In this document: piece after piece, positions 8,688-35,279 of the stretch | Position numbering within the stretch: the first letter of the stretch is position 1 | Layout: each line of letters starts with the position of its first letter | Assembly: GCA_043803205.1 (NCBI GenBank) | Contig: JAZDKG010000116.1 | Coordinates: 31,316-95,315, forward strand | DNA from: Planctomycetota bacterium | Lineage (GTDB): Bacteria; Planctomycetota; DG-23; JAZDKG01 | Reading direction: 5' to 3' | DNA: 64,000 bases | Notes under the pieces: generated by a model | Databases searched by the model: none | Told to the model about the DNA's origin: nothing | What the model saw: the letters and a program-made list of their open reading frames with translations, nothing else | Translations under genes and position numbers: made by a program

Positions 8688-8909
8688 GGGGCTCTAACAG
8701 AACCAGGCGCGAGTCGCGTTGCGAGCGCGACGGCGTCTGATGCAAGGCGCGACGAGGAGGCATATCAAGAGACCGATATGCCGACGAGGAGCAACGCAGC
8801 AGCAGATGTCGTCCCGCCGTAACCCGAAGGGACGCGACCATTCCCGCGCCATCATATCGCTCCTCCTTCTCGAAGCGTCGCGGCCGTGTCTGGTTCTGTT
8901 AGAGCCCCT
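8687..8909. repeat. IR-flanked structured intergenic element (20-bp perfect inverted repeat 'aggggctctaacagaaccag', ~183-bp spacer with nested hairpins)
   Basis: Arm 8687-8706 is the exact reverse complement of 8890-8909. Inside is the hairpin ggcatatc-N8-gatatgcc flanked by the direct repeat GACGAGGAG. The element lies between convergent gene ends. Confidence 0.6.
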
Positions 8910-8921
8910 AAGCGCGCCCGC

Positions 8922-9986: not shown

Positions 9987-10189
9987 TGAGACACGTAACC
10001 GCTCATGGCCTTAAGAGGCCGTCTTTAGATCATCCCCCGCTCCTGCGCGGCCTCAAACCGAGGCTGTCCATGCACGATAGAGTTTACCCCCTTGTCTCTT
10101 CCGCCAGGAAGGGGGACCGGCGCTGTCCGTGCGATACCTGCGGGATAGCAGGTGTTCAACCCAGCGTGGAGAAATCCGTATGGTCTCCC

Positions 10190-11389
10190 TCACGCATATT
10201 CCTTCCAGGCCTCCACCATACAGAGAACCTTTTTCCAGGGAACACCGGCGTAGATACCGGGGATGGGATGGAGGATAAACCCCCCGCCCGGGGACATCAG
10301 CTCCAGCGTTTCCCGGACGACTCGATGGATCTCTTCTGGAGACGCGTTCGCCAACATCACGTCGCAATTGATCCCCCCCATCAACGTCTTCACATCGCCC
10401 AGCTCTCGCTTGAGGCGGGCGAGATCCTCGCCGCCCTGAACGGGATCTATGTCTCGGAAGACGTCCACTTTCATCGTCCGGTAGATGTCCGCGAGTTGCG
10501 TCACTCCTTCGCTCTGCTGCTGGCTGAGAAGAGCGCCGGCTTGATGCACGATCTCGCCCTCCTCGTCCATGAGAGGCTTGAGGTACCTCTGGAAGTAATT
10601 CCGGCCCCAGAAATCCGGCGTGTCGTAGTAGCCGAACCGCGTAACCATATCGACGCCGATCTCCAGCACGCGGCCCAAGATGGCGATCTGCCAGTCCTGG
10701 ATGATCCGCAGGAACTCCGCGATGAATTCCGGATCGGACGCGAAGGTGCACATGGCTTCCTCCGCGTCCGTCAGCCAGAGCATCGCGGATCCGCAGTAGG
10801 TCCGCCGTGCGAGGAAAACGGCTTGGCGCTTCTGCGCCTCCCGCTTGGCGTAAAGAGCATCCTCTCTCCAGCTATCCAGAGCCATACCGGAAAGCGGTTG
10901 GAAGAGATAGCGCATCCTCTCCAGATCACCCGGGCACTTGATCAGGAACTCCACGCTACGGGAGGGGTTTACGTCCTCCAGCAGACCGACGCCGTCTATC
11001 AGATCGGCAAGGGGACCACGGGTGTTTCGGTTGATTTTGTGCCAGCTATACAGGTCCTCCGTCTCGCGGATCGCCTGGCGGAGGATGCCCGCTGGCGTCT
11101 CGTACTCCTTGTACAACACGCTCGCCCCCGTCACGCCATCCGCTTCTTTCCACTGGCGGACTCTCACGTCAGGGTGGAAGCTTGGATCCGGCAGCCAGAC
11201 CTCCACCATCGCATCGGTCCCGAGCGCCAGCAGATCGTCGGTTCGCTCGAACTGGTCCTGCCACCTTGCCACCGACGGGTCATAGGTGAGGTAGCTGGGG
11301 TGCACCTCCAGGTGCAGAGGCACATGGTCCGTCGGCTCGTGGGCACAGGCGGCCAAGATGCGCTCCCGGGATGTCATGGTGGTCTTCAT
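10190..11389 (-). CDS. Uroporphyrinogen decarboxylase (URO-D) family protein, paralog 2
   Basis: 399 aa. C-terminal '...WKEYA' parallels ORF 2849..3841, indicating paralogy. Confidence 0.45.
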   Translation of the reverse strand: MKTTMTSRERILAACAHEPTDHVPLHLEVHPSYLTYDPSVARWQDQFERTDDLLALGTDAMVEVWLPDPSFHPDVRVRQWKEADGVTGASVLYKEYETPAGILRQAIRETEDLYSWHKINRNTRGPLADLIDGVGLLEDVNPSRSVEFLIKCPGDLERMRYLFQPLSGMALDSWREDALYAKREAQKRQAVFLARRTYCGSAMLWLTDAEEAMCTFASDPEFIAEFLRIIQDWQIAILGRVLEIGVDMVTRFGYYDTPDFWGRNYFQRYLKPLMDEEGEIVHQAGALLSQQQSEGVTQLADIYRTMKVDVFRDIDPVQGGEDLARLKRELGDVKTLMGGINCDVMLANASPEEIHRVVRETLELMSPGGGFILHPIPGIYAGVPWKKVLCMVEAWKEYA

Positions 11390-11469
11390 CGGCAGAGTTG
11401 TCTTAACCGGATCATATTTCGGAGTCTGGTGCCGCGTCCTGCCTCTGGCGGCGCCGCGTCCCCCTCCCG

Positions 11470-11814
11470 CTACTTCGCCTTCACAACCTTGATCGCGTCG
11501 CCGTCCTTGACCTTGGCGAACTCATTCGGGTCGCCGTCCAGGGACCCGACGACGTTCACGGGGCTGTACGGCGTCTGCCCGAAGAAGATGCACAAGGCGT
11601 CTCCAGGCGGCCAGTACCCCAGAGCCCCCGAGGGGACCGAAGCCTGCGGATCCTCCTCGCCCGCCTTGACGGGTATGGAGAAGTAAACCTCCTTCCCCCA
11701 CCGGTTCGCCGTGGCCTCCACGGGGAGGATCGCGAGGATCTTCTTCGCGGTGCCGGACTCGTTCAGGGTGGCGGTCATGGAAACGGAGGAACTCTCGATT
11801 CGGATCTTCGCCAT
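11470..11814 (-). CDS. Cyclophilin-like fold protein (PF04126-like)
   Basis: Start trimmed to MAKIRIESS (ATG at 11812-11814). The pattern '...ALP...WGKEVYF...GALGYWPPGDALCIFFGQTPYSPVNVVG' matches the cyclophilin-like family consensus as I recall it. Confidence 0.55.
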   Translation of the reverse strand: MAKIRIESSSVSMTATLNESGTAKKILAILPVEATANRWGKEVYFSIPVKAGEEDPQASVPSGALGYWPPGDALCIFFGQTPYSPVNVVGSLDGDPNEFAKVKDGDAIKVVKAK

Positions 11815-11836
11815 GACGGGACCTTTCCGGAAAGCC

Positions 11837-13039
11837 TCACAGATAGTGGCCGAGCTTGGCGCGCTTAGTCTCGAGATACCGACGGTTCCACTCCGTGGGC
11901 TCGATGACCAGCGGCACCCGCTCCACGATCGACAGGCCATACCCCTCCAGGGCCACCATCTTCCGCGGGTTGTTCGTGAGAAGCCGCAGCTTGCGGATCC
12001 CGAGTTCCAGAAGCATCTGCGCCCCCAGACCGTAGTCGCGCTTGTCGGCCGGAAATCCCAGTTCCTCGTTCGCCTGGACCGTGTCGAGCCCCTTCTCCTG
12101 CTGCAGGAGATAGGCCTTGAGCTTGTTCTCCAGGCCGATCCCCCGGCCCTCCTGCCGCAGATAGAGCACCGCCCCCCGTCCTTCCTTCTCGATCATCTCG
12201 AGCGCCAGCCACAACTGCTGGCCGCAGTCGCACAGCGCGGACCCGAACACGTCCCCCGTGAGGCATTCGCTGTGCATGCGCACGAGTACCGGCTCCTCGA
12301 TGACGCGCGTACCCGCGTCGCCCTTCGTGAGAGCTAGATGCTGCGTCGCCTCGAAGGGCGAAGAGAATAGATGGAGGTCGAAGTCGCCGAAGTGCGTCTT
12401 CAGCGGCACCGACAGGTTCCTCCGGATGAGCTTCTCCGTGCCCAGCCGGTAGCGGATCAGCTCCGCGATCGTGACGATCGGGATGCCGTGGCTGCGCGCG
12501 AAAACCGCAAGGTCGCCCAGACGCGCCATCGTGCCGTCATCCTTCATGACCTCGCAGATGACGCCCGCCGGCCGGGTGCCCGCTATGCGCGCAAGGTCGA
12601 CGATCCCCTCGGTCTGGCCCGCGCGCATCAGCACACCCCCCGGGCTGGCGCGCAGGGGGAAGACGTGGCCGGGGCTGACCAGGTCCCCCGGACCCGCCCC
12701 CGGCCGGACCGCCGTGCGGATCGTGTGCGCGCGGTCGGCCGCGCTGATCCCGGTCGTCACACCGCACGCCGCCTCGACGGACACCGTGAAGGCCGTGCCG
12801 AACTTCGCCCGGTTGTCAGCCACCATCGGCGCAAGTCGCAGGGCGTCGCAGATCTCCGGGGCAAGAGACAGACAGATGAGTCCCCTTCCGAACTTCGCCA
12901 TGAAGTTGACCGCCTCCGGCGTGACCGCCTCTGCGAGCATGGCGAGGTCGCCCTCGTTCTCGCGGCTCTCGTCGTCGACGAGGATGATCATCTTCCCCGC
13001 CTTCAGAACCTCCAACGCGCTCTCGATCGAGGCGAACAC
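11837..13039 (-). CDS. ribBA: Bifunctional 3,4-dihydroxy-2-butanone-4-phosphate synthase / GTP cyclohydrolase II
   Basis: The N-terminal DHBP synthase half ('ILVDDESRENEGDL') and the C-terminal GTP cyclohydrolase II half ('CLTGDVFGSALCDCG', 'YLRQEGRGIGL') are both recognisable. Confidence 0.9.
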   Translation of the reverse strand: MFASIESALEVLKAGKMIILVDDESRENEGDLAMLAEAVTPEAVNFMAKFGRGLICLSLAPEICDALRLAPMVADNRAKFGTAFTVSVEAACGVTTGISAADRAHTIRTAVRPGAGPGDLVSPGHVFPLRASPGGVLMRAGQTEGIVDLARIAGTRPAGVICEVMKDDGTMARLGDLAVFARSHGIPIVTIAELIRYRLGTEKLIRRNLSVPLKTHFGDFDLHLFSSPFEATQHLALTKGDAGTRVIEEPVLVRMHSECLTGDVFGSALCDCGQQLWLALEMIEKEGRGAVLYLRQEGRGIGLENKLKAYLLQQEKGLDTVQANEELGFPADKRDYGLGAQMLLELGIRKLRLLTNNPRKMVALEGYGLSIVERVPLVIEPTEWNRRYLETKRAKLGHYL

Positions 13040-13052
13040 GGGCTGTCTCCTT

Positions 13053-13649
13053 TCAAGGACCTGCGTGGCCCTCCGTCTCCGGGATGCGGGCGTAATCCAT
13101 CTTCCTCCAGCCGGCCGCTAGGTAGTCGAGCGCGCTGGCGCACGTGGTGGCCGCCGTCCAGACGCAGACAATGAGGACGGCGTTGTGCGGGAGCTGGTCC
13201 GAAAACAGGATGACGAAGATCGTGACCACTTGGAAGAACGTCGTCGCCTTGCCGACGGCCGAGGGGTTGGGCTCGATCCGCCCCGTCGCGAAGCCTATGA
13301 CCCCGGACCCCAGCGCCAAAAACACGTCGCGCGCGATCACCACCACCGCTAACCACAGCGGCACGGCGATCCGCGGAGGAAGCACCACCTGCGGGCTGCT
13401 CAGGAGCAGGAACGCGCTGACCAGCAGAACCTTGTCCGCAAGAGGATCGAGAAACGCGCCCGCTCGCGTCTTCTGCCCGAACCGCCTCGCCAGCGCCCCG
13501 TCTAAGATGTCGCTCGCGCTGATGACGACCACCAGGCCCAGCAGAATCCCGAAGTGCTCCTCCATCTGGAAGACGAGCCCGATGAAGAACGGCACCAGGG
13601 CCAGGCGGAAAAGCGAGATCAGGTTCGGCCAGCTCAAGGAAGCGGTCAC
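13053..13649 (-). CDS. CDP-alcohol phosphatidyltransferase (PgsA-like)
   Basis: Carries the 'DILDGALARRFGQKTRAGAFLDPLADK' signature (D-G-x2-A-R-x8-G-x3-D-x3-D). Multiple TM segments. Confidence 0.8.
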   Translation of the reverse strand: MTASLSWPNLISLFRLALVPFFIGLVFQMEEHFGILLGLVVVISASDILDGALARRFGQKTRAGAFLDPLADKVLLVSAFLLLSSPQVVLPPRIAVPLWLAVVVIARDVFLALGSGVIGFATGRIEPNPSAVGKATTFFQVVTIFVILFSDQLPHNAVLIVCVWTAATTCASALDYLAAGWRKMDYARIPETEGHAGP

Positions 13650-13659
13650 GTCGCCGTCC

Positions 13660-14610
13660 TCACTTCGACACGCTTCGGTACCATTCGACGAAACGCGGGA
13701 TCCCCTCTTCGATGGGGATGCCCGGATTGTACCCTAAGAGGGCGCGCGCCTTCGAAACGTCCGCGCACGTGCGCCTCACGTCCCCGGGCTGCATCGGCAG
13801 GATCTTGCGCCGCGCGGGCTTGCCCAGCGCCTCCTCAAGAAGCTCGACAAGCCGCCCAAGCGTGGTGGTGCGCGATTCGCCGAGGTTGATGATCTCGAAA
13901 CGCAGCGGCGTATCGATCGCCGCCAAAAGCCCCTGCAGGATGTCCGTTACGAAGGTGTAGTCCCGCTCCGTCGACCCATCGCCGAAGAAAGGGATCTCCT
14001 GCCCCGTCTCGATGAGTCGCGTGAACGCGTGGATCGCCATGTCGGGGCGCTGTCGGGGCCCGTAGACCGTGAAGAAGCGCAGCGCCGTCACGGGAACCCC
14101 GTAGAGGCTGTGCCATGTCGCGCAGAGGAGTTCCCCGGCGACCTTGGTGGCGGCGTAGGGACTGACGGGGGAGTCCACCCGGTCGGCCTCCCGGAACGGA
14201 ACCTCGTTCGAGTTGCCGTAGACGCTCGAGGAGGAGGCGAAGACGAGCCGATCGACCTCGATCAAGCGCGCCAACTCCAGGATGTTCGCCGTCCCAAGAC
14301 AGTTGGTGCGGACGTAAAGCTGCGGGCTCGCAATCGACGGCCGCACCCCAGCTCGCGCAGCTAGGTGCACGATGATCCGGATCGACCGCCCACGCAGGGA
14401 GGCGTTCAGGAAATCCAGGTCGCAGATGTCCCCCTCGACCACGACGAGGCCGGGATGGTCGCGATGGCGCGCGAGATTCGCCCGCTTCACCCTCGGATCG
14501 TAGTAGTCGTTGAAGTCGTCGACGACGATCACCTCGTCGCCGCGCACTAGCAAAGCGTCCACCAGGTGGCTTCCGATGAAGCCCGCTCCGCCTGTGACCA
14601 GGACCGCCAA
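13660..14610 (-). CDS. NAD-dependent epimerase/dehydratase (SDR family, UDP-sugar 4-epimerase-like)
   Basis: N-terminal Rossmann motif 'VLVTGGAGFIGSHL'. Catalytic 'YAATK'. Confidence 0.8.
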   Translation of the reverse strand: MAVLVTGGAGFIGSHLVDALLVRGDEVIVVDDFNDYYDPRVKRANLARHRDHPGLVVVEGDICDLDFLNASLRGRSIRIIVHLAARAGVRPSIASPQLYVRTNCLGTANILELARLIEVDRLVFASSSSVYGNSNEVPFREADRVDSPVSPYAATKVAGELLCATWHSLYGVPVTALRFFTVYGPRQRPDMAIHAFTRLIETGQEIPFFGDGSTERDYTFVTDILQGLLAAIDTPLRFEIINLGESRTTTLGRLVELLEEALGKPARRKILPMQPGDVRRTCADVSKARALLGYNPGIPIEEGIPRFVEWYRSVSK

Positions 14611-14695
14611 GCCGATTCCTCCGTGGGCGCGAAAAAACGGGGTTCCGCAAGGAAATGATATCCCTGCCGAGACGAGCTTTCAAGCAAAGGGGACC

Positions 14696-17152
14696 TCACC
14701 GGCCCGAGACAGGGCAGCACGTGAAATCGTCGATCCAAGCGACGCCCTCGGACCGGTCGTCGTAGAACAGGAACTCGACCATGAGCTGCGCGGTATCGTC
14801 CTCGACGCGCGTGTCCACCGAGAGCTTCTGCCACTGGTCCCCCGTGGCCTTGCGGCCCCCGACCCCCCCCTGGTGACGCAGCCACCGCCCCTCGCGGTTG
14901 AAGGCGGTGAAGATGACGACGATGCTTCCCGCCTTCACGTCCGCCTGGTAGCTCACGCTCGCGCGATACGATTTCCCCGGCGTAACGTCGAACCGCTGGC
15001 GCAGCGACACGATCGACTTCGCCGCCGGCGCCTTGGTCAGACGGACGCTGGTCTTTCCGGAATGGCTCTTCGAGGCGTCCAGCATCACTCCCCCCGGATC
15101 CACCGTGTACTCCTCGGGAAGGTAATCGCCGCCCGCATTCCACCCGTCGGGAATGCCGTCTCCGTCGATCTCCGCCTCGAAGCTCGGATTCATGAGGACG
15201 TTCGCCCCCACCGCCTCCTCTCCCGGAATGGCGAGCTTCTCCGGATGGGACAGGATCTCCTTCATTTCCGGGATGGTCTTGTTATCGCCCGTGACGGCGG
15301 TCCGGTGGACCTTGAGCAAGCCAAGCTCCTCCATGAGTGCGAAGAAGCGCACAAAGGCGGCCTCTCGCAGCGCGTGGTCGCGTGGCGCGAAGTTGAGGAT
15401 GGCCAGATCTAGGCTCGCACGCGCGAGCTCCACCCGGCGGCGGACATTCGCGTCATCGGCGACCTTCGCCATGGCCGTCTCGAAAAGCGCGTCCATCTCC
15501 TCGATGGCCGACCACCTGAGTTTGGGCGCGAGGCTCCCGCTCTCGTGAACCCCCGGATACGCGGTGAACGTGGGACCGATCGTCTTCTCGTAGGAATCAA
15601 TTGATTCCACCTTGAGCGCGAACTCCGCCAACTCGCCGCCCGCGGCTCCGTAGTAGGTCGTGCAGAAGTCGCGGACGCCCGCCTGCCAATCGAACTCAGC
15701 GTCCCATAGCATCCGGCAGACGAGATAGGAGACGAGGGGCTGAAGGCCCAGCGGGACGGTGAAGTAACCCTGGGTCTCGGCGTTGCCGTAGGCGGGAAGG
15801 AGTTTGTCTCCGTCGAACGAGGCGTTGGAACGCCGGCTGGCGCCGGAACCGGCCTCGACGAACACCGTCCGGACGCCCTTGTCCCGGAAGATGCGGAAGT
15901 CTCCCGCCGTGGCGTGCATCTTCATGTGAGGCATGAGAATGTCGCTCTGGGTGTGATAGTACCAGATCCCGAGCATGGACGCGTTCGCCTGCCACTTGGA
16001 GAGCTGCCCCAGGAAATCGCGGTCCCGGTTCGGGTCGCACTCGTCGAACGCGTGGGCGCGGCAGTTGCTGATCGGACACCACACAACGCGCACCCTGGGA
16101 TGCATCGCGACCGAGGTCGGCGCAAACGTGATCCCATACGCCAGCGTCGAAATGATCGCCTGCGGATACTCCTTCGTCACGAGATCCGCAACCTTGTTGT
16201 CGAACTCCATGTAGGTCCCGGACAGTCCGACGCGCTCGTAAGAGGCGCGGCAGGCTTCGCACCGGCAGTAGTTGGCGTTGTCGGCGTGCCCCAGGCCTAC
16301 GAAGTGCGGGCCCGTGGTGCCGCGCAGCGAACGCTTGAGCACGTCCGCCATGTAAGCCACGAAACCGTCGTTCGTGAGACAGTACGCCCGTTCGTTGGGG
16401 TTCTCCTGACACGTGCGCTTCCCGTCGATCTCGGCATAGTACTCCGGGTGCTCCTCGTAGAGCGACTTCGGGATGTACGAGAACTGGTGCTCCGAGGAGT
16501 AGTTTCCGATCGTCGCCACCCGCGGATCGCTCATGAGCATCATCATCGACACCGTCCCCCCGTGCGCCTTGCACTCGTTGAGCCGGTTCCGAGCGGTCCA
16601 CGCCGCGTCCCAGTGCATGCACGGGTTCGTCGAGCGCCACGTGAACGCCGGCCTCTGACGGTCCCGGATCTCCGGCAGCGCTAGGTCCGACTGCTTGGGG
16701 ATCCTCATGCACCCGGGCGTGCACCACCGACATCCCAAGTGATCCTGAAGAAAACCATACATGCCGTTGATCGTCCCGCGCAGCGGGCCCCCCGCGATCA
16801 CAAGATGATTCCCCGCGGTGCGAATCTCATATTCGCCTTCGGCGAACCCGTCCGCTAACCCCGTAAGCCCCAGCGCCCCCAAGTGCGCGTTCTCCGCCCC
16901 AAGGATGATCTCGCACTCCCCCGCCGCCGAATCGTCGGTCACCACGGGGAAATCAGCCCCCGTCATCTCCTTGAGGACGCAGGCCAAGTCTTCCGCGACC
17001 GCGCGCGTGCTCACGTCCGCGCCCTCCGGCAGAACAATGCGGCACGCGCTCTGTCCCCCGGTCGCTAGGACCCGTTCGCCGGCGCGGACGGAGCAGGATA
17101 GAACAACGATAAGGGTCGCTAGACACACACCCAAGGGACAGAGACGTTTCAT
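14696..17152 (-). CDS. Secreted DUF4838-like glycoside-hydrolase-like protein with C-terminal CBM-like beta-sandwich
   Basis: Signal peptide (MKRLCPLGVCLATLIVVLSCSVRA). The ~550-aa N-terminal region resembles DUF4838/GH20b-like proteins from memory. The C-terminal ~150 aa looks like a galactose-binding-like domain. Confidence 0.45.
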   Translation of the reverse strand: MKRLCPLGVCLATLIVVLSCSVRAGERVLATGGQSACRIVLPEGADVSTRAVAEDLACVLKEMTGADFPVVTDDSAAGECEIILGAENAHLGALGLTGLADGFAEGEYEIRTAGNHLVIAGGPLRGTINGMYGFLQDHLGCRWCTPGCMRIPKQSDLALPEIRDRQRPAFTWRSTNPCMHWDAAWTARNRLNECKAHGGTVSMMMLMSDPRVATIGNYSSEHQFSYIPKSLYEEHPEYYAEIDGKRTCQENPNERAYCLTNDGFVAYMADVLKRSLRGTTGPHFVGLGHADNANYCRCEACRASYERVGLSGTYMEFDNKVADLVTKEYPQAIISTLAYGITFAPTSVAMHPRVRVVWCPISNCRAHAFDECDPNRDRDFLGQLSKWQANASMLGIWYYHTQSDILMPHMKMHATAGDFRIFRDKGVRTVFVEAGSGASRRSNASFDGDKLLPAYGNAETQGYFTVPLGLQPLVSYLVCRMLWDAEFDWQAGVRDFCTTYYGAAGGELAEFALKVESIDSYEKTIGPTFTAYPGVHESGSLAPKLRWSAIEEMDALFETAMAKVADDANVRRRVELARASLDLAILNFAPRDHALREAAFVRFFALMEELGLLKVHRTAVTGDNKTIPEMKEILSHPEKLAIPGEEAVGANVLMNPSFEAEIDGDGIPDGWNAGGDYLPEEYTVDPGGVMLDASKSHSGKTSVRLTKAPAAKSIVSLRQRFDVTPGKSYRASVSYQADVKAGSIVVIFTAFNREGRWLRHQGGVGGRKATGDQWQKLSVDTRVEDDTAQLMVEFLFYDDRSEGVAWIDDFTCCPVSGR

Positions 17153-17201
17153 CGTCGGGGACTCCCTTCGCTCATCACTTGGTTCTTGAAGCCGCAGCAG
17201 C

Positions 17202-18530
17202 CTACAGCGGAAGCTCGTTCCGGACGCTCCGCACCACGGGATAGATCCAGACGACCTCCCGGCGCGGCAAAACCATGGGGCTGTACGCCGGATTCGCGCT
17301 GGCTAGGATCACCCGGTCCTCCTGCGCCGACGCCAAGACCTTGCACGTGATTTCCCCGTCACGGATCTTGGCCACGACCTTCAGCCCCTCCGCTAAGGTC
17401 GTCCCGGGACTTACGATCACAATGTCCCCCGACCGCAGGTCGGGACTCATGGAGTCGCCCCGGATGCGCAGCCCAAACGCGTGGGGATCCGTGACGTCCG
17501 TGGGGGCTAGGACATACTCATCGGCGAAGCCCGCCGGATAGTCCCCATCCGTGAACTGCGCCGGGTCCCCCGCCGCCGTGTGGCTCAGGACCGGGATGAC
17601 CCGGAGGTCCACCTGCACCACGTTGCTCTTCTCCGCGGCCTGGATCGCCTCGCGCAGGCTCTGGATGCTGCGGGCGCGACGCGGATCCGCCGGCCCCGGC
17701 GCAAGAAGGTCTCCCTCCCTCTCAAGCAATTGCCCTGCGAGCCGCGCGACGACGGCGTCCGGGGAGCCTGCAAGCTCCGTTATGGCCTGCTTCGCGGCTG
17801 ACGCCGAAATCCGCCCCAGCGCCCGGACAGCGGCTTCCCGGACCCCGCCGTTCGAGTCGCCCTGCGCTAACCGAAGAAGTGGCTCGACGAACTCCGTCCG
17901 CGGACGCCGATGAGCCGACTCGACCGCCGCAAGACGCACCGTCCGGTCCGGGTCCGCGCAGGACCGCTCGAAAAGCTCGCGGGAGTTCTCCGCGGTGAGT
18001 TCCCCGACGGCTCGCGCCGCCTCTACCCGGACCAGCGGATGGGGATCGTCCTGGGCGGCCCGGATATCGTCCGCCGACCCGCTCCAGGATAGCCGCGCTA
18101 GAAGCGCACACGCAAGACGCCGCACGTCCCACGACGCGTGCTCGCGGAAGGGGCGCAGCCGTTGCGCCAACTGACGCTTCTCATCCGGGAGCGTCCACGC
18201 CGCGTTGAGTTCCGTCCCGATGATATCCAGAATCTGCCGCGCCCCCCGCAGGGTCTCGTCGTCCAACGGAAGCTGTTCGTGCAGAAACCGCTTGAAACGG
18301 TCCGGGATCCGCGAGAGGTCGGCGAGCGCCCCCAGTTCCCCCTCCGGAAGCTTGAGCGCCCGCTCCATTCGCGCGACCACGCCCGCGCTCGGGGGCCTCA
18401 CCTTCCCGCGCTCGACCATGTTGATATAGCTCCTCGTGACCCCGGCCAACCGCGCCAGCTCAAACTGCGTCAGCCCCCGTTCCCGTCGTCGTCGCCTGAG
18501 CTGGTCTCGAAACCGTTCGGTGGCAGCCAT
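17202..18530 (-). CDS. Transcriptional regulator: HTH_XRE + HEAT-repeat (PBS-lyase-like) + C-terminal S24 LexA/CI-like peptidase domain
   Basis: Start trimmed to MAATERF. HTH 'LTQFELARLAGVTRSYINMVERG'. Three to four HEAT repeats ('DPHPLVRVEAARAVGEL', 'DPDRTVRLAAVESA', 'GGVREAAVRALGRI'). S24 domain has 'GDSMSP' (Ser nucleophile) and 'KVVAKI' (Lys). Confidence 0.7.
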   Translation of the reverse strand: MAATERFRDQLRRRRRERGLTQFELARLAGVTRSYINMVERGKVRPPSAGVVARMERALKLPEGELGALADLSRIPDRFKRFLHEQLPLDDETLRGARQILDIIGTELNAAWTLPDEKRQLAQRLRPFREHASWDVRRLACALLARLSWSGSADDIRAAQDDPHPLVRVEAARAVGELTAENSRELFERSCADPDRTVRLAAVESAHRRPRTEFVEPLLRLAQGDSNGGVREAAVRALGRISASAAKQAITELAGSPDAVVARLAGQLLEREGDLLAPGPADPRRARSIQSLREAIQAAEKSNVVQVDLRVIPVLSHTAAGDPAQFTDGDYPAGFADEYVLAPTDVTDPHAFGLRIRGDSMSPDLRSGDIVIVSPGTTLAEGLKVVAKIRDGEITCKVLASAQEDRVILASANPAYSPMVLPRREVVWIYPVVRSVRNELPL

Positions 18531-18562
18531 GGATATCGCCTCCGGGAGAAAAACTGCGTCCG

Positions 18563-19855
18563 TCACTGCGCCGCGGGCTCGACCTTCTCGAGCGCCTCGG
18601 CAAACGCCTTCTGCGCAAGTTCCACCCACTGGGGGTTGTCGCACGGGATGACAGCGCTCACGCGCAGGCCCGGTTCAACCACGATGACCCGCGACGAAGC
18701 GTCCAGGAGACGCAGGGCGAGCCCCGCCGGGTCTTGACCGAGATCAGAGCCCGCCGAAACGACCGGAAAGCCGATGCCATTCGAGGTGAGCTCCCTGATG
18801 GCCTCCCCCTGACGAGGCGTGACGATCACGCAGTAGATCGGCTTCCCGACCTGGGAGCGCACGACGGCATCCAGGGGAGCGATATCCAGCCTCTTGGCCC
18901 CTGGCTCCATCCGCTCCCACACGATCACCACCACCGCCTTCTTGAACGCGCCAAGATAGACGGGAAAGCCGGTGGCCGACTCCAACCGCACCGGCTGCAG
19001 CTTGTCCCCCGGCTTGAGGGGCACCCCCGCGATCGCGCGCTGCATCTTCCGCACCCCCTCCGCCAGTTCCGCGGAAAACTCCTCCACTTTCGACCCCACG
19101 GGCGGCGCATAGAGGAAAGTCCCCTTCTCCACCTCGACGTTCATCTCGTAATTCTTGAAGTCCGCCTTCAGAAACATCCCCTGGCTGCGACGAAACACCT
19201 CCAGCCGATAGATGAGACCGTCGTCAGGCCCCATGTAGAACCAAATGCGCCCCGCCTGTCCGGCGAGGTATGTAAGGTCCGTGATCAGGGGGTTGTTCCC
19301 CAGGCGGCCCGCGCGTTCCATGAGAGGACCGGTGAGCTGCGCCTCAAAGGCCGTCGTCGCGCGGGAGCCGACCCTGTACTCGTTCACGAAAGACATCGCG
19401 TAGAAGGACCCCGCTAGCGTCGGAAGCGCCAGCAGCGAAACCTGGAGCACGGGGTTCTTCCCGACGGTGAACGGCAGAAACTCCTCCCCGAAGTACTCCC
19501 GGATCTCGTCAAGGTTCACCTTTCGCAGATACGTCGCCGCCCCCCCGCTCTCAACCACCTCGTAGAGCGTTGCCCCGTCGGACCGCACCAGATGCCTCTT
19601 TGCGCCCGACGGCTCCTCGACGATGGCGTCGGCGACCACCCGGAACCCATCCATGTACGTGACCTTCCCCGTCACGTTCACCTGCGCGGATTGCGCGTCC
19701 AGAAACATCCCCTCGTACTCGTACGAAAACGACGGAAGGTCGCCCGTCGTGCGAACGAAAGAATCAACGATGGCGTTGAACTTCTCGTCGGCGGACGACG
19801 TCCCCGCAAGAAGAGCAAAGGAGATGAAAAAGGCCAAACAGCAATGACGACTCAT
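18563..19855 (-). CDS. Secreted protein: N-terminal LolA-like/unknown domain + C-terminal TlpA/redoxin-like domain lacking CxxC
   Basis: Start trimmed to MSRHCC with signal peptide. The C-terminal ~130 aa follows the TlpA-like thioredoxin fold pattern, but the WCxPC position reads 'WERMEPGAK'. Confidence 0.4.
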   Translation of the reverse strand: MSRHCCLAFFISFALLAGTSSADEKFNAIVDSFVRTTGDLPSFSYEYEGMFLDAQSAQVNVTGKVTYMDGFRVVADAIVEEPSGAKRHLVRSDGATLYEVVESGGAATYLRKVNLDEIREYFGEEFLPFTVGKNPVLQVSLLALPTLAGSFYAMSFVNEYRVGSRATTAFEAQLTGPLMERAGRLGNNPLITDLTYLAGQAGRIWFYMGPDDGLIYRLEVFRRSQGMFLKADFKNYEMNVEVEKGTFLYAPPVGSKVEEFSAELAEGVRKMQRAIAGVPLKPGDKLQPVRLESATGFPVYLGAFKKAVVVIVWERMEPGAKRLDIAPLDAVVRSQVGKPIYCVIVTPRQGEAIRELTSNGIGFPVVSAGSDLGQDPAGLALRLLDASSRVIVVEPGLRVSAVIPCDNPQWVELAQKAFAEALEKVEPAAQ

Positions 19856-19985
19856 GACTCCGCTCCTCCTCAGGAACCCTCCCAACCGAATCTAACCCCT
19901 TTTGAACACAATGTCAAACATGGGCTTGACTTTTTCTTCCCGGACCTTTCCCCCTGCGGTGGGCGCCGGCCTCGGTCTGGGATGG

Positions 19986-20858
19986 TCAGATAGCGGCGGC
20001 AATGAGCCTGAAGGTGACCTTGGCGGCGACGACATTGCTCGGCAGCGAGAACTCGTGGGGCGATAACTCCACGATGTCGAAGCCGACGATCCTCGCCTTC
20101 TCCCCCAGGGCGCGAATGACCGACGTGATCTGCCGCCACGACAGGCCCCCCGGCTCAGGCGTCCCCACGGCGCCGCACAAGGACGGGTCCAGACCGTCAA
20201 GGTCGACCGTCACGTACACGTTCGGCGAAAGCCTCGAGAGCACTCTCGGTATCCAATCCGTCCGCCCTTCAAGGTCCCACGCGTAGAAAGGCTCAAGCCC
20301 CTCCTCCGCAACGAAGCGATGTTCCTCCTCGCTCACGCTGCGCACGCCGACCTGCACGACCGGGACAAGCTCGAGGCACCGTCGCGCGACGCACGCATGG
20401 GAGAATGGCGAGCCCTGATAGGAATCACGCAGATCGAGGTGTGCGTCGATCTGCAGCACCGACAGATCCCCGAACCGGCCCGCGAGCGCCCGGACGGCCC
20501 CCAGGGAGATCGAATGCTCCCCCCCCAGAAGCGCGGGGATCTTTCCGTCCTCGACGACCCCACGGACGGCCTGCTCCACCCGCGCGATCTCAAACTCCGG
20601 TCCCCGGACGTCGGTCTCCATCGGGGGCAGCGTCGCCACCCCGCAGGCAAGCGGCTCTCGCTCGAGCTCCCCGTCGTAAAGCTCCGTATTCTGGCTCGCC
20701 TCGATGATGGCCCGCGGCCCGCGCCGGGCGCCCCCGCCGAACGTCACTGTGGACTCATACGGCACCGGGAGGACCGCCACGCGCGCCGACTCGTAGTCGG
20801 CAAGCTCCGCCGCAAGCGCCCCGAAGTTGTCCGGGACATGCTCATACCTCGGGACCAC
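19986..20858 (-). CDS. speB: Agmatinase (arginase/ureohydrolase family)
   Basis: Has the ureohydrolase motifs 'GGEHSIS', 'DAHLDLRD' and 'SVDLDGLDP'. Confidence 0.8.
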   Translation of the reverse strand: MVPRYEHVPDNFGALAAELADYESARVAVLPVPYESTVTFGGGARRGPRAIIEASQNTELYDGELEREPLACGVATLPPMETDVRGPEFEIARVEQAVRGVVEDGKIPALLGGEHSISLGAVRALAGRFGDLSVLQIDAHLDLRDSYQGSPFSHACVARRCLELVPVVQVGVRSVSEEEHRFVAEEGLEPFYAWDLEGRTDWIPRVLSRLSPNVYVTVDLDGLDPSLCGAVGTPEPGGLSWRQITSVIRALGEKARIVGFDIVELSPHEFSLPSNVVAAKVTFRLIAAAI

Positions 20859-20912
20859 GGGAGACTCCCTTTCCAGAAGGCCTCCTTCGCAAGCTGCCTC
20901 CCCCCGGGGAGA

Positions 20913-22082
20913 TCACGCGCGCTTTCTCCCGCACGGCCAGGTCCCCTCGGATCGGGCTTGCCCGCGCCGGGCCTTCCCGGCCCCCTTCGCCCCTGAGATC
21001 CGCTTCGCGTGGCTCGCCAGTTGCTTGGTGAGGGCATCGAGACGAGCGTAAAGACGCCTGGGCCGTCGTTTCTTGCACGACGCTAGGACATACGCTCCCA
21101 AGAGCGGAAAGGCGATGGTGGCGTCGCAGTATACCACGGCGTAACGGCGCCTGGGACCCCGGGAGATCTTCCCCCAGGAGATCGCCTCCTGCGGTGTCGC
21201 CCCCGACAGCCCCCCCCACTGCGGCGAATCCGTGGTGATCTGGACGAAATAGTCGTGGCCCCCCTTATCGATCCCGAGGATCTGCGAAAGCATCGGCTGC
21301 GTCTGCATGTAGAAGTTCTTGGGGGAGCCCCCGCCGATCTCCAGCACCCCGTTCTTCGCCGCCGCGTTCACGATGGCCGCCGTCTCTATCACGTCCAGGT
21401 CGCAGTCCACCATGAGCGACCCGCCTCGAAGCTTCGCGGCGGCTAGGTTCATCCCGATCGACGAGTCCCCCGGGCTCGAGGTGAAGACCGGCACGTCATA
21501 TTCCGCCGCGGCGGCCAGCATCGAGAGTTGAGGCTTCGCCGTCTCCCGCAGAACCCTCTTCCCCAGCGCGTGGTGCACGCGCGCGCTTGAGACGGGCGCC
21601 TCACACGGGATGTCGGCGGCCGCCTCCTGAACGAAACGGTCCGTGCGCAGCAGGATCTCCTCCGTGATGAACACGTCGTAGATGCGCTCGATCCCCGCCT
21701 CCGCAAGCTCGTCGTCGTCTGCGTTCGCGTCGCCCTGACGGGGCGTAAGCTCTAAGGCGAAATGCAGGTCGTGGTACAGGTTGGCCCCCGTGGAGATCAC
21801 GAAATCGATGAACCCCCCCCGTATCAGATCCCGCACCACGCCCCCCATCCCCGCCGGGACCATCGCCCCGGAGAGCGTGAGCGCGATGGTGGCGTTTTCC
21901 TCTATCATCCGCTTGAGGATGGCGGCGGCCTCGGCTAAGCGCCCGCCGTTAAACGCCCCCGTGCGCGACCATCCGTCCATGAGATCAACGATGCCGATCC
22001 TCTTCCCCCGCGCAAACCCCATCGGCTCCACGGGAGGACCCGCCAAATACTGCTTCCGGAGGACGCTGCGCTTTCCGGGCAT
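20913..22082 (-). CDS. Deoxyhypusine synthase-like protein (probable homospermidine synthase-type)
   Basis: Start trimmed to MPGKRSV (ATG at 22080-22082), which removes a low-complexity N-extension. The DHS-family pattern includes 'GGSPKNF'. Sits between pdaD and speB. Confidence 0.65.
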   Translation of the reverse strand: MPGKRSVLRKQYLAGPPVEPMGFARGKRIGIVDLMDGWSRTGAFNGGRLAEAAAILKRMIEENATIALTLSGAMVPAGMGGVVRDLIRGGFIDFVISTGANLYHDLHFALELTPRQGDANADDDELAEAGIERIYDVFITEEILLRTDRFVQEAAADIPCEAPVSSARVHHALGKRVLRETAKPQLSMLAAAAEYDVPVFTSSPGDSSIGMNLAAAKLRGGSLMVDCDLDVIETAAIVNAAAKNGVLEIGGGSPKNFYMQTQPMLSQILGIDKGGHDYFVQITTDSPQWGGLSGATPQEAISWGKISRGPRRRYAVVYCDATIAFPLLGAYVLASCKKRRPRRLYARLDALTKQLASHAKRISGAKGAGKARRGQARSEGTWPCGRKRA

Positions 22083-22093
22083 GACTCTCTCGC

Positions 22094-22660
22094 TCACATC
22101 GTAATGAGGACGGCGGCCGCCACCACCGTCGTCCAGAGACCGTCCTTGTCGCACTCCGTGCTCTGCGTGATGTTGCGCGACGCGACGATCTCCCCGCTCA
22201 TCCGGTATACCTCGCGCCGCTCGTCGTAGTTCTTGTCGGGATCGAACGGGATACCCAGCGTCGTGGCCAGCATCGTCGCCGCGAGATCCTCCGCGTAGTC
22301 CCCCGCCTTCTTCTCCGTCTCCCCGAACGAATGGTGCTCGCTCAGGTACCCGTAGTGGCTGCGGTTCTTCGGCACCGCTAGTCCGATGCTCGCCGCCATG
22401 AGACGGTTGGGTTCGTTGGTGGCGGCCTCCGCCATCACGACGAACACGATCTGCCCCGGCCGGAGCTTCCGCAGCCCGATCGCCTTGGCGATCGCCTTGC
22501 ATGCCGGCGGAAAGATGCTCGAAACGCGCACAAGGTTGAACTTCTCAATCCCCGCGCTCCGCAGCGCCAGCTCGAACGACGCTAGCTTCTCCCTGTGCTT
22601 GCCCACGCCCTTCGTGAAAAAGATGTGCGTGGGCACGAAACTCTTCAGGGCGTCTTCCAT
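22094..22660 (-). CDS. pdaD: Pyruvoyl-dependent arginine decarboxylase
   Basis: 188 aa. '[12 protein letters not shown]' contains the Ser-Ser self-cleavage site typical of PdaD. Confidence 0.85.
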
Positions 22661-22862
22661 CGCGCTTGATCCTTTCCAGCCTCAGGCCGTCCGCCGACTT
22701 CAACGGTGCAGAATATAACAACGGCCCAAGAAGGTCTCCAGAAAAAAGCTCCAGGGGTTTCCACACGGACGCCGGCGCCCCAGTCGCAGCTGATCTCTTG
22801 CTCGAAGACGCCTCTTCCCGGACAATCCTCCCCGCGTTGACCTCTCTCAAGGATGGACGCGG

Positions 22863-23549
22863 ATGACGTATCGGGCGGTGCTCTTCGACCTCGACGGCAC
22901 GCTCCTGGATACCGTCGACGACCTTGCGGACTCCATGAACTGCGCCTTGGCGCGCCTGGGGTTCCCCGGGCACGACACCGCGGCCTACAAGCGCCTAGTG
23001 GGCGACGGCGTGGAGCACCTCGCCCGCGGCGCCCTCCCGGACGGTCGTCGCGACAAGAAAACCGTGGCGCAGTGCCTCGCCGCCATGCGCGACGAATACG
23101 GAAAACGCTGGGCGAACAAGACCCGCCCCTACGCCGGTATCCCCGAGCTCCTCGATGCCCTCACGTCGCGCGGCGTCCCGATGGCGGTCCTCTCCAACAA
23201 GCTCGATGATTTCACCAAAATCATCACCGCAAGCCTCCTCGGGAAGTGGCGCTTCTCGCACGCCGCCGGAGCCCGTCCGGGCGTCCGGCGCAAACCCGAC
23301 CCGACCGAGGCCCTCAGGATCGCGCGCGACATGGCCGTCCCCCCCGCCGACTTCCTCTACGTGGGCGACACCGGCACCGACATGAGAACCGCCAACGCCG
23401 CCGGGATGTTCCCCGTCGGAGCGCTCTGGGGCTTCCGCGACGCCCAGGAGCTCCTCGAGGGCGGCGCTAGGACCCTCATCGAAAAGCCCGTCGAGCTCCT
23501 CGGGCTCCTCGACCGCCCTCCCGCCCTCACTGAGAGCCTTAACCCTTGA
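22863..23549 (+). CDS. HAD-superfamily hydrolase (phosphoglycolate phosphatase-like)
   Basis: Motif I 'LFDLDGTLLDT', motif II 'LSNK' and motif IV 'VGDTGTDM'. Confidence 0.8.
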   Translation: MTYRAVLFDLDGTLLDTVDDLADSMNCALARLGFPGHDTAAYKRLVGDGVEHLARGALPDGRRDKKTVAQCLAAMRDEYGKRWANKTRPYAGIPELLDALTSRGVPMAVLSNKLDDFTKIITASLLGKWRFSHAAGARPGVRRKPDPTEALRIARDMAVPPADFLYVGDTGTDMRTANAAGMFPVGALWGFRDAQELLEGGARTLIEKPVELLGLLDRPPALTESLNP

Positions 23550-25098
23550 GAAGCTTATACTCGAAGCTGTCCACGAGGGCTAGCCACGACGCCTCGATGA
23601 TGTTCTCGCTTACCCCCACCGTCCCCCACACGTCCGTCTCGTCGCGCGACTCGATCGTGACGCGCACGCGCGCCGCCGTCGCCGCCCGCGGGTTCACCAC
23701 GCGTACCTTGTAGTCAAGGAGCCGCATGTCCTTGAGCTGGGGGTACACCCCCTCCAGCGCTAAGCGCAGCGCCCCGTCCAAGGCGTTCACCGGGCCGTCC
23801 CCCTCGGCCACCGTGTGGAACGTCCGCGAGCCGACCCCGAGCTTCAGCGTCGCCTCCGTCACCGGCATCTCCCCCCTCTGCTCGACAATGATGCGGTACC
23901 CGTGCAGCTTCCAGAAGCTGCGGTGCTTGCGCAGCATCTTCTTGACGAGGATCTCGAACGACGCCTCCGCGGCCTCGAAAAGGTATCCCTCGTTCTCGAG
24001 CTTCTGGACCTTCGCCAAGACCCGCCGCATGGTCTCCGGGTCGCGCGCGATGTCCGACTTCTCCATCTTCTGGAGGATGCTCGCCGACCCCGAAAGCTCC
24101 GAGAGCAAAATCCGCCGCGTGTTCCCGATCGTGTCGGGCGGGACGTGCTCGTACGTGCGCTCGTTCTTCTTCATCGCGTCGATGTGCATCCCCCCCTTGT
24201 GGCTGAACGCGCTCAGGCCCACGTAGGGCTGGCCGTGCGGGACGGCCAAGTTCGCCAGCGAATAGAAGTAGCGGGACAGCTCCGTGAGCTGCTTGAGGTT
24301 CGCCCTCGCGCTGCAGTCGCACCCGAGCTTGAGGACGAGGTTCGGGACAAGCGAGCAGAGGTCCGCGTTCCCGCAGCGCTCCCCCACTCCGTTCAGCGTC
24401 CCCTGCACGTGCCTCGCCCCGCGCTCGACCGCGGCCAGCGTGTTGGCCACCGCTAGGCCTGAATCGTTGTGCGTGTGGATCCCGATCACGGGACGATACA
24501 ACCGCGTCTCCCTGCGCACGCGCGAAACAGCCGCCGCGACCGCCGAGACCGTCGTCCCGCCGTTCGTGTCGCACAGCACCAGCGCGTCCGCGCCCGAATC
24601 CAGCGCCGCGCGCAGAGTCTTCATCGCGTACTTCGGGTTGTGCGCGTACCCGTCGAAGAAGTGCTCGGCGTCCAGGAAAACGGTCCTCCCCTCCTTCTTG
24701 AGGTGCCGCACGCTGTCCGAGATCATCGCGAGATTGTCCTTCGGACCCACCCGCAGTACGTCCCGGACGTGAAGGTCCCAGCTCTTCGCCACCACCGCGA
24801 CGGTGCCCGTGCCCGCCCCGAGGAGCGCGCGCAGGCCCGGGTCCTTGTCCGCGGCGTACTTCGCCCGCCGCGTCGACCCGAACGCGACAACCTGCGCGTG
24901 CGAGAGCGCAAGGTGCGCCGCCTCCCGGAAGTACGAAGCGTCCTTGGGATTGGACTGGGGGTATCCGCCCTCGATGTAGTCGATCCCGAACTCGTCGAGA
25001 CGCTGGGTCAGGGCGAGCTTGTCCTCGAGGCTCAGCGAAATCCCCTCCGCCTGACACCCGTCCCGCAGCGTCGTGTCGTAGATGACGATCTTCTTCAC
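23539..25098 (-). CDS. LeuA/CimA family: citramalate synthase or 2-isopropylmalate synthase
   Basis: Start set to GTG (VKKIVIYDTTLRDGCQ). The HMGL-like TIM barrel has 'HTHNDSGLAVANTL', and the C-terminal LeuA-dimer regulatory domain is present. The upstream part of the six-frame ORF is low-complexity. Confidence 0.8.
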   Translation of the reverse strand: MKKIVIYDTTLRDGCQAEGISLSLEDKLALTQRLDEFGIDYIEGGYPQSNPKDASYFREAAHLALSHAQVVAFGSTRRAKYAADKDPGLRALLGAGTGTVAVVAKSWDLHVRDVLRVGPKDNLAMISDSVRHLKKEGRTVFLDAEHFFDGYAHNPKYAMKTLRAALDSGADALVLCDTNGGTTVSAVAAAVSRVRRETRLYRPVIGIHTHNDSGLAVANTLAAVERGARHVQGTLNGVGERCGNADLCSLVPNLVLKLGCDCSARANLKQLTELSRYFYSLANLAVPHGQPYVGLSAFSHKGGMHIDAMKKNERTYEHVPPDTIGNTRRILLSELSGSASILQKMEKSDIARDPETMRRVLAKVQKLENEGYLFEAAEASFEILVKKMLRKHRSFWKLHGYRIIVEQRGEMPVTEATLKLGVGSRTFHTVAEGDGPVNALDGALRLALEGVYPQLKDMRLLDYKVRVVNPRAATAARVRVTIESRDETDVWGTVGVSENIIEASWLALVDSFEYKLLKG

Positions 25099-25248
25099 GT
25101 CTGCCCTTCTTCTGCCTCGTCCCCCTATCGTTGAACCGCCATTGTACCCTCCCACCCTCTCCGGGCAAGGCCGCTCCCGACCGCCCCCCTTAGGCTGCCC
25201 CTTCCCTGCGTTCGCGCCCCGCCGCCGCTCGCGCCGCCTTCTCACGAT

Positions 25249-25797
25249 CTACCTCGAAGGCATCGCGATGATCTCCGTCACGTTGGATCTGAGTACGTCG
25301 GCGTACCCGTACGTCTCAACCGCGATCGCCGTATCCGCCCCCCATCCGGTCCCCCCGATCGAGATCACGTGGGAGCCTGCTTGCAGCAAGCCCGTGTCCA
25401 CGCACATCGACGCCACCTGCATCGCGACCTTGAACCCCTGACTCAGCGTCCGCCAAGCATCCGCAATGTCCGGACGTTCCGAATCCAGGATGCGTACCAC
25501 CGGTGCGGCGGGCAGGAACTCCACGCCCATCTCCAGGCACTCACGCACAATCTCCGCGTCGGGGGGACGGTGCTTCTCCCACAGGTGCTTCTGGAAAGGC
25601 ACCGCGATGATCCGCGTCCCCGTCCCGGCGAAAGCGCGCGCCGCCTCAAGCGCCGTCTTCCCCGTCGTCGATGCGACCACCACCGCCTCCGCCTCGAGCT
25701 CACCCGCCCGCTCCCTCGCTGCCCGAACAGTCTCCCCAGTATGCACCGCCCCTCCCTTCTCAAAGTACAGTGTCTCTACTCTTCTCATTCTCCGCAC
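25249..25797 (-). CDS. Pyruvate kinase alpha/beta (PK_C-like) domain protein
   Basis: 182 aa. The 'LYFEKGGAVHTGETVRAARERAGELEAEAVVVASTTGKTALE' pattern matches stand-alone PK C-terminal-domain proteins as I recall them. Confidence 0.5.
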   Translation of the reverse strand: MRRMRRVETLYFEKGGAVHTGETVRAARERAGELEAEAVVVASTTGKTALEAARAFAGTGTRIIAVPFQKHLWEKHRPPDAEIVRECLEMGVEFLPAAPVVRILDSERPDIADAWRTLSQGFKVAMQVASMCVDTGLLQAGSHVISIGGTGWGADTAIAVETYGYADVLRSNVTEIIAMPSR

Positions 25798-25978
25798 TCC
25801 GACGGACGTTCTAACTTGGAAAAGGGCACATTCTACTTCTTGATCGCCTTGCCACGCTTCTTAGCCGCCCTCTTCCGCGTCCGCGGACGCCCCCGAAGGC
25901 GCAGGGTCGATTCAAGGCCCAGGCGGCTAGCGCTCGTGGCTGCCATGCTGGATATCCAGAGCGCACCCGCCTCCAAGC

Positions 25979-26692: not shown

Positions 26693-26846
26693 GGTCTTCC
26701 TCCTCCAAAGAGTCCAATCGCAGAACAACCCCAATTGTAGAGACGCATCCCCGACGCGCAACCGCCGATATGCCGCCGCCCTTACCCTTTCGAGATACAC
26801 GCGGAAGCGGTAGAATTACAGTGCTCTTGCGGAGAAAGGACAACGC

Positions 26847-27965: not shown

Positions 27966-28041
27966 CGGAGCCCCTGCGGTTGACCGCCGCGATCGGGTCC
28001 GTAGAATGCTTGTTAGACGCCATGAGCGGAGCTGACACTAC

Positions 28042-29759: not shown

Positions 29760-29777
29760 TGCCGGGATTCGCACCCC

Positions 29778-33951: not shown

Positions 33952-35279
<1,328 letters not shown>

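Follow-up and report, generated by a model that had tools for sequence, protein, structure and literature searches.

Introduction

Regulation by self-cleavage has its textbook case in the repressors of the Peptidase S24 family, such as LexA and the phage CI proteins, and for nearly all of those known the single input is RecA*. Here we describe an S24 regulator of different build, encoded in a stretch of 64,000 nucleotides from a Planctomycetota bacterium (assembly GCA_043803205.1, contig JAZDKG010000116.1, positions 31,316 to 95,315 of the forward strand), which we call the window throughout. The 442-aa regulator carries an XRE-type helix-turn-helix (HTH) head and an S24 protease domain, and between them a solenoid of HEAT repeats. 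It is probably, in our reading, a self-cleaving repressor of the LexA/CI type that autoregulates a two-gene cassette, with the HEAT module of its hinge serving for interaction or oligomerisation.

The closest described systems each share a part of this plan. LexA is an S24 autoprotease with a Ser-Lys dyad separated by 37 residues and an Ala-Gly cleavage site of the form (V/T)AAG(E/D)P, all of which recur in the window protein, and autoregulation from a palindrome overlapping the promoter is a further, probable likeness. LexA differs in its winged-helix head (the window protein has an XRE HTH and no LexA_DNA_bind match is listed by Pfam), in a hinge of a few residues where the window protein has about 243 aa, including five HEAT repeats, between head and protease, and in controlling DNA-repair genes where the apparent target here is a secreted protein. 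The LexA equivalog model TIGR00498 scores 43.6 bits against a cut-off of 110.95 and matches the C-terminal half only. Repressors of the lambda CI, 434 CI, PrtR and SetR type have HTH_3 and S24 domains in the same order and a similar distance from cleavage site to catalytic Ser, but they are about 200–240 aa long and without a repeat module, and they are usually found on prophages, integrative and conjugative elements or bacteriocin loci, whereas the locus described here is chromosomal, syntenic and free of phage genes.

Functionally, the nearest precedents for placing an input module between HTH and S24 come from Firmicutes. IrvR of Streptococcus mutans is an XRE-S24 protein that cleaves itself independently of RecA and controls a surface lectin, and its inter-domain region (aa 81–122) is required for dimerisation and for autocleavage (PMC7101444); in S. 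suis, PrlP cleaves itself when the cell is under acid, oxidative, osmotic or heat stress (PMC12273997). The inter-domain region of these proteins is some 50 aa long, with no recognised fold and no HEAT repeats, and they show no detectable specific relationship to the window protein beyond the superfamily. HEAT proteins of the PBS-lyase type (MTH187, alphaRep, NblB, CpcE/F) resemble residues 133–276 of the window protein in repeat sequence and fold, but are stand-alone binders or lyase subunits, none of them fused to an HTH or S24 domain.

Results

A regulator of three parts

The regulator gene is an uninterrupted open reading frame (ORF) of 442 codons plus stop on the minus strand, running from an ATG at 18530 to a TAG, with a GGAGG ribosome-binding site (RBS) 8 nt 5' of the start. 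Its product matches at 100% a protein (P0001) entered at NCBI as 'MAG: S24 family peptidase [Planctomycetota bacterium]' and encoded on a 107-kb contig, MAG being a metagenome-assembled genome. All domains score above the curated Pfam cut-offs: HTH_31 covers residues 7–69 (E 2.5e-14), and HTH_3 also matches the N-terminal HTH (E 2.3e-13); HEAT_2 is found in two stretches (E 6e-19, 68.5 bits against a cut-off of 27.7) and HEAT at E 1.8e-11; Peptidase_S24 (PF00717) covers residues 313–429 (E 8.3e-19, 67.8 bits against 23.3). A sequence search of the PDB matches residues 2–70 to XRE HTH domains, about 130–280 to alphaRep/HEAT scaffolds and about 350–435 to UmuD, LexA and CI. In an AlphaFold2 (AF2) model built from a five-sequence alignment the HTH is confident and ten helices occupy residues 115–276 with a predicted local distance difference test (pLDDT) of 85–95; the top PDB matches of the model in Foldseek are alphaRep/HEAT proteins, with a TM-score of about 0.8 (normalised to target length). 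The three-part architecture is thus real and far above chance, and an earlier note on this stretch, which had proposed an HTH_XRE, HEAT and S24 order with a HEAT-like middle, is borne out on both counts.

The extent of the repeats is smaller than that note supposed. In their register there are five, each of some 31 aa, with starts close to residues 133, 162, 193, 225 and 256, and together they span about 145 aa in place of the proposed 250 aa; a non-HEAT linker of about 60 aa precedes them and a hinge of 36 aa follows. The linker (residues 70–132) is without a Pfam match and is predicted to be helical, with low pLDDT in the AF2 model, and contains a motif, NAAWxLPDEK (residues 109–118), that is invariant in all five orthologues described below. 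The hinge consists of a Pro-rich segment and a pre-cleavage helix, LxxLRxAIxAxExSN, the helix being present also in relatives without HEAT. DNA binding by the HEAT region, as in AlkD, was considered and found no support, the net charge of the region being about 0 (-4 to +5) across the orthologues.

Catalytic and cleavage residues

Catalytic residues were placed by HMMER alignment to UmuD, which puts the predicted nucleophile at Ser360, in the GDSM motif as the earlier note had it, and the predicted Lys at Lys397 in GEITCK. The dyad is therefore intact as claimed, but its Lys is not the one in KVVAKI (K388); this residue aligns with the 'VVVARI' position of LexA, and Lys397 corresponds to LexA Lys156 in 'EVTVK' (numbering of P0A7C2). 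The predicted cleavage site Ala320-Gly321 is, by motif, equivalent to A84-G85 of LexA (RVAA/GEP). It lies within the stretch that matches TIGR00498 (residues 268–426), with a CI-like distance of about 40 residues to Ser360. Together the PF00717 score, the aligned Ser/Lys pair and an Ala-Gly bond N-terminal to the core assign the protein, by sequence, to the S24 family.

A family alignment of 15 sequences, 34–64% identical to the window protein, shows no variation at A320, G321, S360 and K397. This bears on one alternative, that the S24 domain dimerises without cleaving and that the protein, an XRE repressor or activator, is stable and responds to ligands or proteins bound by the HEAT repeats. 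Non-cleaving LexA-like proteins are known, some cyanobacterial LexA among them, but we regard the alternative as quite improbable here, since such invariance of the Ala-Gly bond and both catalytic residues is hard to explain without catalytic constraint.

Rarity, orthologues and family placement

Only five proteins with the HTH-HEAT-S24 architecture were found among about 15 billion. Beside the window protein there are four (P0002–P0005), recovered from a 5.8-billion-cluster database by word-indexed search with the protein and a family profile; they are 51–60% identical to the window protein by BLASTP (52–64% in the alignment), and JGI or ENA metagenomes are the source of all four, leaving the window protein, from its Planctomycetota MAG, as the only one of the five with a taxonomic label. 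When 1.84 billion representatives, clustered at 50% identity, were searched exhaustively with a profile, a single full-length one was recovered, P0005; it was followed by giant HEAT proteins, which flooded the top of the list, and by XRE-S24 proteins without HEAT. Clade-specific peptide patterns found no HEAT-bearing copy in GTDB representatives (185,579 species), and family-level patterns gave none among the matches listed for the same representatives, the best of these being a short-hinge relative in the Planctomycetota MAG HKST-UBA84. A scan of JGI metagenome contigs likewise found no HTH-HEAT-S24 copy. No model in Pfam, NCBIfam or PADLOC names the combination, the naming searches with NCBIfam and PADLOC giving only generic, sub-threshold HTH, HEAT or LexA-like matches, and a literature search for the architecture found nothing relevant. 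The combination appears, then, to be undescribed as a family, as the earlier note had suspected.

Among the five orthologues mean pairwise identity is 66% in the HTH and 72% in the S24 domain, and 46–47% in each of linker, HEAT and hinge. HEAT_2 is kept in all five, P0002 being without the fifth repeat. The called starts of P0002 (L004 1903-3102) and P0004 (L002 5685-6944) are an internal Met (MTQ...) within HTH helix 2, and P0003 has a 17-aa N-terminal extension that overlaps the neighbouring partner gene; the start codons of these three were probably mis-called. The ATG of the window copy agrees with the start of P0005.

A wider set of XRE-S24 proteins without HEAT (P0010–P0015, P0041, P0072, P0100, P0115, P0116, P0177–P0179, and one at locus L008 in a Planctomycetota MAG) shares with the window protein the motif HLERTPxDVR after the HTH and, in the C-terminal half, IPxIS(R/H)TAAGDPxxFTDGDYPxGFAxEYV, AFALRIxGDSMxP, VVAK, TCK and WxYPVVxSIRxE. 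Hinge length in this family ranges from about 30 to about 240 aa: it is about 30 aa in P0072, P0115 and P0116, and about 130–170 aa, and helical, in P0010, P0012–P0015 and P0177–P0179. These long hinges have neither HEAT nor any other Pfam match. The possibility that they are degenerate HEAT repeats was rejected, hhalign linking only the pre-cleavage helix, and that weakly (E 5.6e-4, probability 30%). Because the motifs are shared with non-HEAT relatives and the HEAT region is unrelated to their hinges, the window protein belongs, as judged from these alignments, to a small uncharacterised XRE-S24 family whose hinge is a hot-spot of evolution, and represents its HEAT-bearing branch. The family has the same HTH and S24 core throughout, and its long-hinge members share the pre-cleavage helix as well; it differs from the HEAT-bearing branch in hinges that are not homologous to the HEAT repeats and in its gene neighbours.

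A conserved secreted partner gene

In each of the five loci the gene next to the regulator on its upstream side encodes a secreted protein, which in the window has 430 aa counted from its ATG, a clear signal peptide (MSRHCCLAFFISFALLAGTSSA/DE) and a AGGAGGAG RBS. Its stop codon is 32 nt from the regulator ATG (33 had been counted earlier). Gene calls in L001, L002 and L004 give homologues 35–50% identical to the window copy, and identity across the loci is 30–50%. The L003 copy was recovered by tblastn, the gene being broken by an assembly gap: a run of N at L003 1655-1870, with a sequence of about 55 nt duplicated on both sides, is an assembly artefact that made gene callers miss the partner. 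The partner family is as rare as the regulator and is known only beside an HTH-HEAT-S24 gene.

The partner has no Pfam or NCBIfam match, even at permissive E values of up to 5–10. A four-sequence profile gives weak matches to LolA at residues 211–270 (E 0.031) and to thioredoxin (Trx)-fold glutathione peroxidase at residues 289–344 (E about 0.7–1.1). An AF2 model was too poor (pLDDT 45) and was left out of the fold search; the secondary structure of this low-confidence model, about 11 N-terminal beta-strands and then a beta/alpha C-terminal part, is in keeping with the LolA and Trx hints. Invariant motifs are IWFYxGxDDGLxY and PGLxVxAVxPCxNxxW. The earlier description of a secreted protein without CxxC is accurate, but its label 'TlpA-like' has no Pfam or NCBIfam support and must be called unproven on the sequence.

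Promoter and candidate operators

The partner gene is preceded by a predicted sigma-70-type promoter, comprising TTGACA (19917..19912), a 17-nt spacer and TAGATT (19894..19889). It scores 10/12 and is the sole sigma-70-like site in 16900..20100, where 0.1 is expected. The five loci have in common a block composed of an A-rich stretch, AA(A/G/C)GT(C/T)(A/G)A, TTTGACAT, the 17-nt spacer and TA(G/T)ATT, and the sequence around this block cannot be aligned among them. Two candidate operators overlap the promoter. The first is an inverted repeat that runs into the -35 box, GTCRA or GTTGA followed by TTGAC in 5/5 loci; both the window and L004 have it in perfect form, and it is the sole perfect match in the 64 kb of the window; the second, a pseudo-palindrome over the -35 box and spacer, is unique there as a perfect or near-perfect match. 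Palindromes placed over a promoter look like the pattern of an autoregulated repressor operon. A Cheo-box or LexA-box in the promoter spacer was rejected: CGAAC-N4-GTTAG is present in L001 and a CGTAC variant with one mismatch in L002, and it is not conserved in the other three loci.

A further motif, (A)AAAAGTCAAG, occurs at 19921..19933 of the window (minus strand), at L005 5900-5910, L006 5501-5511 and L007 6-16. The operons that it precedes belong to HEAT and non-HEAT members alike, its distance to the predicted promoters varies, and the L008 relative has no copy upstream. The 8-mer AAAGTCRA occurs four times in the window against two expected. An operator half-site of the family, an UP-like element and the -35 box of a divergent promoter are all conceivable readings of the motif; in L006 a divergent tRNA-Gln gene lies on the minus strand, and AAAAGTCAAG could be the -35 box of its promoter.

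A classical SOS-type regulator, cleaved after DNA damage under stimulation by RecA*, in which the HEAT repeats are a non-sensing rigid spacer or additional dimerisation element, is a possible but rather doubtful account of these findings. Its case lies in the LexA-like cleavage motif (T/V)AAG(D/E)P and Ser/Lys dyad, in LexA being the best NCBIfam match of the C-terminal half, and in the continuously variable length of family hinges on one S24 core, which suggests a tolerant spacer, and in the repeat missing from P0002. However, the apparent target encodes a secreted protein and not a DNA-repair function; the one operator-like site in the window stands at the regulator's own operon, with no further such sites and no SOS genes detected in the 64 kb; the HEAT repeats and the NAAWxLPDEK linker are kept in all five orthologues; and LexA-like proteins that act independently of RecA exist (PMC7101444).

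Genomic neighbourhood

Downstream, the regulator stop codon is separated by 49 nt, as the earlier note had it, from the start of a gene for a secreted protein with a DUF4838 domain (E 4.9e-55) and a C-terminal CBM_4_9-like domain (25.0 bits, just under the cut-off of 25.9). No promoter or terminator was detected in the gap, and in the window the DUF4838 gene is possibly co-transcribed with the regulator. The downstream neighbour varies: it is DUF4838 in the window and in L004, the closest relative locus, BKACE in L001 and L002, and an unrelated 496-aa protein in L003. A dedicated glycan module is not conserved. Since DUF4838 adjoins the regulator in only two of the five loci, the envelope or glycan signalling module that had been proposed is not supported; the gene conserved across all five is the secreted partner upstream. 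Family relatives in L004 and L005 likewise have DUF4838 genes nearby, and these genes seem to be abundant in the lineage rather than specifically linked to the regulator.

The flanks include leuA and a HAD hydrolase, syntenic between the window and L001/L002, and the other neighbours are housekeeping genes (agmatinase, deoxyhypusine synthase-like, an epimerase, ribBA), with no phage genes among the neighbours of the cassettes in the window, L001 and L002. Syntenic chromosomal flanks without phage genes speak for a resident regulator; no second S24 gene is present in the window. That the regulator is an artefact, with separate HTH, HEAT and S24 genes fused by faulty assembly or gene calling, or else the CI repressor of a prophage, is very improbable. 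That the data are all metagenome assemblies and that L003 has an assembly gap nearby would favour an artefact, but the same uninterrupted ORF, domain order and junctions recur in five independent assemblies from NCBI, JGI and ENA, and the flanks are of housekeeping character and syntenic.

Just upstream of the cassette, at 19986..22502 on the minus strand, agmatinase/arginase-family (E 3.6e-64) and deoxyhypusine-synthase-family (E 1e-81) genes stand in tandem and make up a pair of polyamine/homospermidine type. Taken at its longest ORF, the deoxyhypusine-synthase-family gene encodes an Arg/Gly-rich N-terminal extension of about 170 aa ahead of the Pfam match, and its true start is probably further downstream. 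GC content is 61–69% throughout the window, with no island-like dip at the cassette. Nearly all 2-kb bins of the whole window (1..64000) have a negative GC skew (cumulative -4.4), and in its first 32 kb the minus strand carries most of the long ORFs, which is consistent with a single replichore and strong strand bias.

Non-HEAT relatives lie in other neighbourhoods, often beside lipoproteins, TPR proteins and other secreted proteins. The flanks at L006 5614-8910, L005 6001-9602 and L008 4083-9708 hold small unknown proteins, a 622-aa TPR protein, an LppM-like protein, lipoproteins and a 977-aa repeat protein with a lipoprotein-type signal peptide. The whole XRE-S24 family may control envelope or secreted proteins, or such genes may merely be common in Planctomycetota.

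Table 1. Positions of the regulator, its parts, and associated features (window coordinates unless a locus is given)
Feature	Position	Strand	Basis
HTH_XRE-HEAT-Peptidase_S24 regulator gene	17202..18530	-	ORF and Pfam domains; 442 aa plus stop
XRE-type helix-turn-helix, residues 7-69	18324..18512	-	HTH_31, HTH_3
Clade-specific helical linker, residues 70-132	18135..18323	-	Invariant alignment columns
HEAT (PBS-lyase/alphaRep-type) solenoid, residues 133-276	17703..18134	-	HEAT_2, PDB matches, AF2, repeat register
Hinge, residues 277-312	17595..17702	-	Family alignment, hhalign
Peptidase S24 domain, residues 313-442	17205..17594	-	PF00717; UmuD/LexA/CI PDB matches
Predicted self-cleavage site Ala320-Gly321 (HTAA/GDP)	17568..17573	-	Invariant in 15/15 family members
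Predicted catalytic Ser360 (GDSM)	17451..17453	-	Aligns to UmuD GDSM Ser60; invariant
Predicted catalytic Lys397 (GEITCK)	17340..17342	-	Aligns to UmuD 'GEFTVK' Lys97; invariant
Secreted partner, 430 aa from ATG	18563..19855	-	Directly upstream of regulator, 5/5 loci
Partner homologues	L001 6718-8004; L002 4300-5589; L004 512-1795; L003 489-1921		
Predicted sigma-70-type promoter TTGACA-17 nt-TAGATT	19889..19917	-	Conserved in 5/5 loci
Candidate operator 1, inverted repeat GTCAA-N8-TTGAC ending in -35 box	19913..19930	-	Five-locus alignment
Candidate operator 2, 17-bp pseudo-palindrome TTnGACA-N3-TGTCnAA, -35 box and spacer	19902..19918	-	4/5 loci
Secreted DUF4838 + CBM_4_9 protein, 818 aa	14696..17152	-	Pfam

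Discussion

What is known of LexA and CI suggests how the cassette may work, and from these proteins we infer the repression, autoregulation, cleavage and degron use proposed here. The regulator would be a cytoplasmic repressor in which the HEAT solenoid and the clade-specific linker take the place of the short hinge of XRE-S24 proteins, and would be expressed as the second gene of the cassette, after the secreted 430-aa protein, from one strong sigma-70-type promoter. Its S24 domain would dimerise, and the oligomer would bind the promoter palindromes and repress its own operon. An inducing signal would then allow the Ser360/Lys397 dyad to cut Ala320-Gly321, parting the HTH-HEAT fragment (35 kDa) from the S24 dimerisation domain (13 kDa) and derepressing the cassette. 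The N-terminal fragment of LexA ends ...RVAA and is recognised by ClpXP; the new C-terminus of the HTH-HEAT fragment, ...SHTAA, is LexA-like and could route it to clearance by the same protease.

The HEAT repeats would lie wholly on the DNA-binding side of the cut. As a surface for self-association or partner binding they may set the geometry of operator binding, the accessibility or competence of the cleavage site, or both, and self-association or partner binding is the role that seems most likely, by analogy. A part in assembly and cleavage is suggested because the inter-domain region of IrvR provides a precedent for it. The reading of the regulator as an autoregulating, self-cleaving repressor gains from the retention of one architecture in five independent assemblies, always with HEAT despite 46% identity. 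Several observations weigh on the other side. In the AF2 model the S24 half and the packing between domains are poorly modelled, with pLDDT below 50 for residues 274–379. L001 and L003 (GTCGA) as well as L002 (GTTGA) have a degenerate left arm in candidate operator 1, candidate operator 2 is absent in L003, and TTGAC equals the -35 consensus itself; five sequences are too few to define an operator, and the operator assignment is tentative. Finally, with the partner secreted and the regulator cytoplasmic, direct sensing of the one by the other is unlikely.

An alternative is that the HEAT repeats are a sensor, binding a cytoplasmic protein or metabolite that reports on the status of the envelope or of secretion (an accumulating precursor of the co-encoded secreted protein, for example) and so gating autoproteolysis independently of RecA. 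Gating of this kind is plausible by analogy with IrvR, but we consider the sensor as a whole unlikely.

S24 self-cleaving repressors and a small-scale inter-domain precedent were already known; the HEAT module in the hinge appears to be new. The practical weight of the finding is limited by its base of five metagenomic sequences, an uncultured lineage of Planctomycetota and a regulated gene without family assignment. A binding solenoid placed between a DNA-binding head and a scissile bond would nevertheless show how new inputs can be wired into the LexA/CI switch, and a natural HEAT-bearing S24 repressor would extend the hint given by the 40-residue inter-domain segment of IrvR. HEAT/alphaRep scaffolds being engineerable binders, it would also point to a modular design of DNA-binding head, programmable binder and autoprotease. 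Were the HEAT repeats indeed a sensor, they would add a new class of input to those of the S24 repressors and make the cassette a self-contained switch for envelope homeostasis in Planctomycetota.

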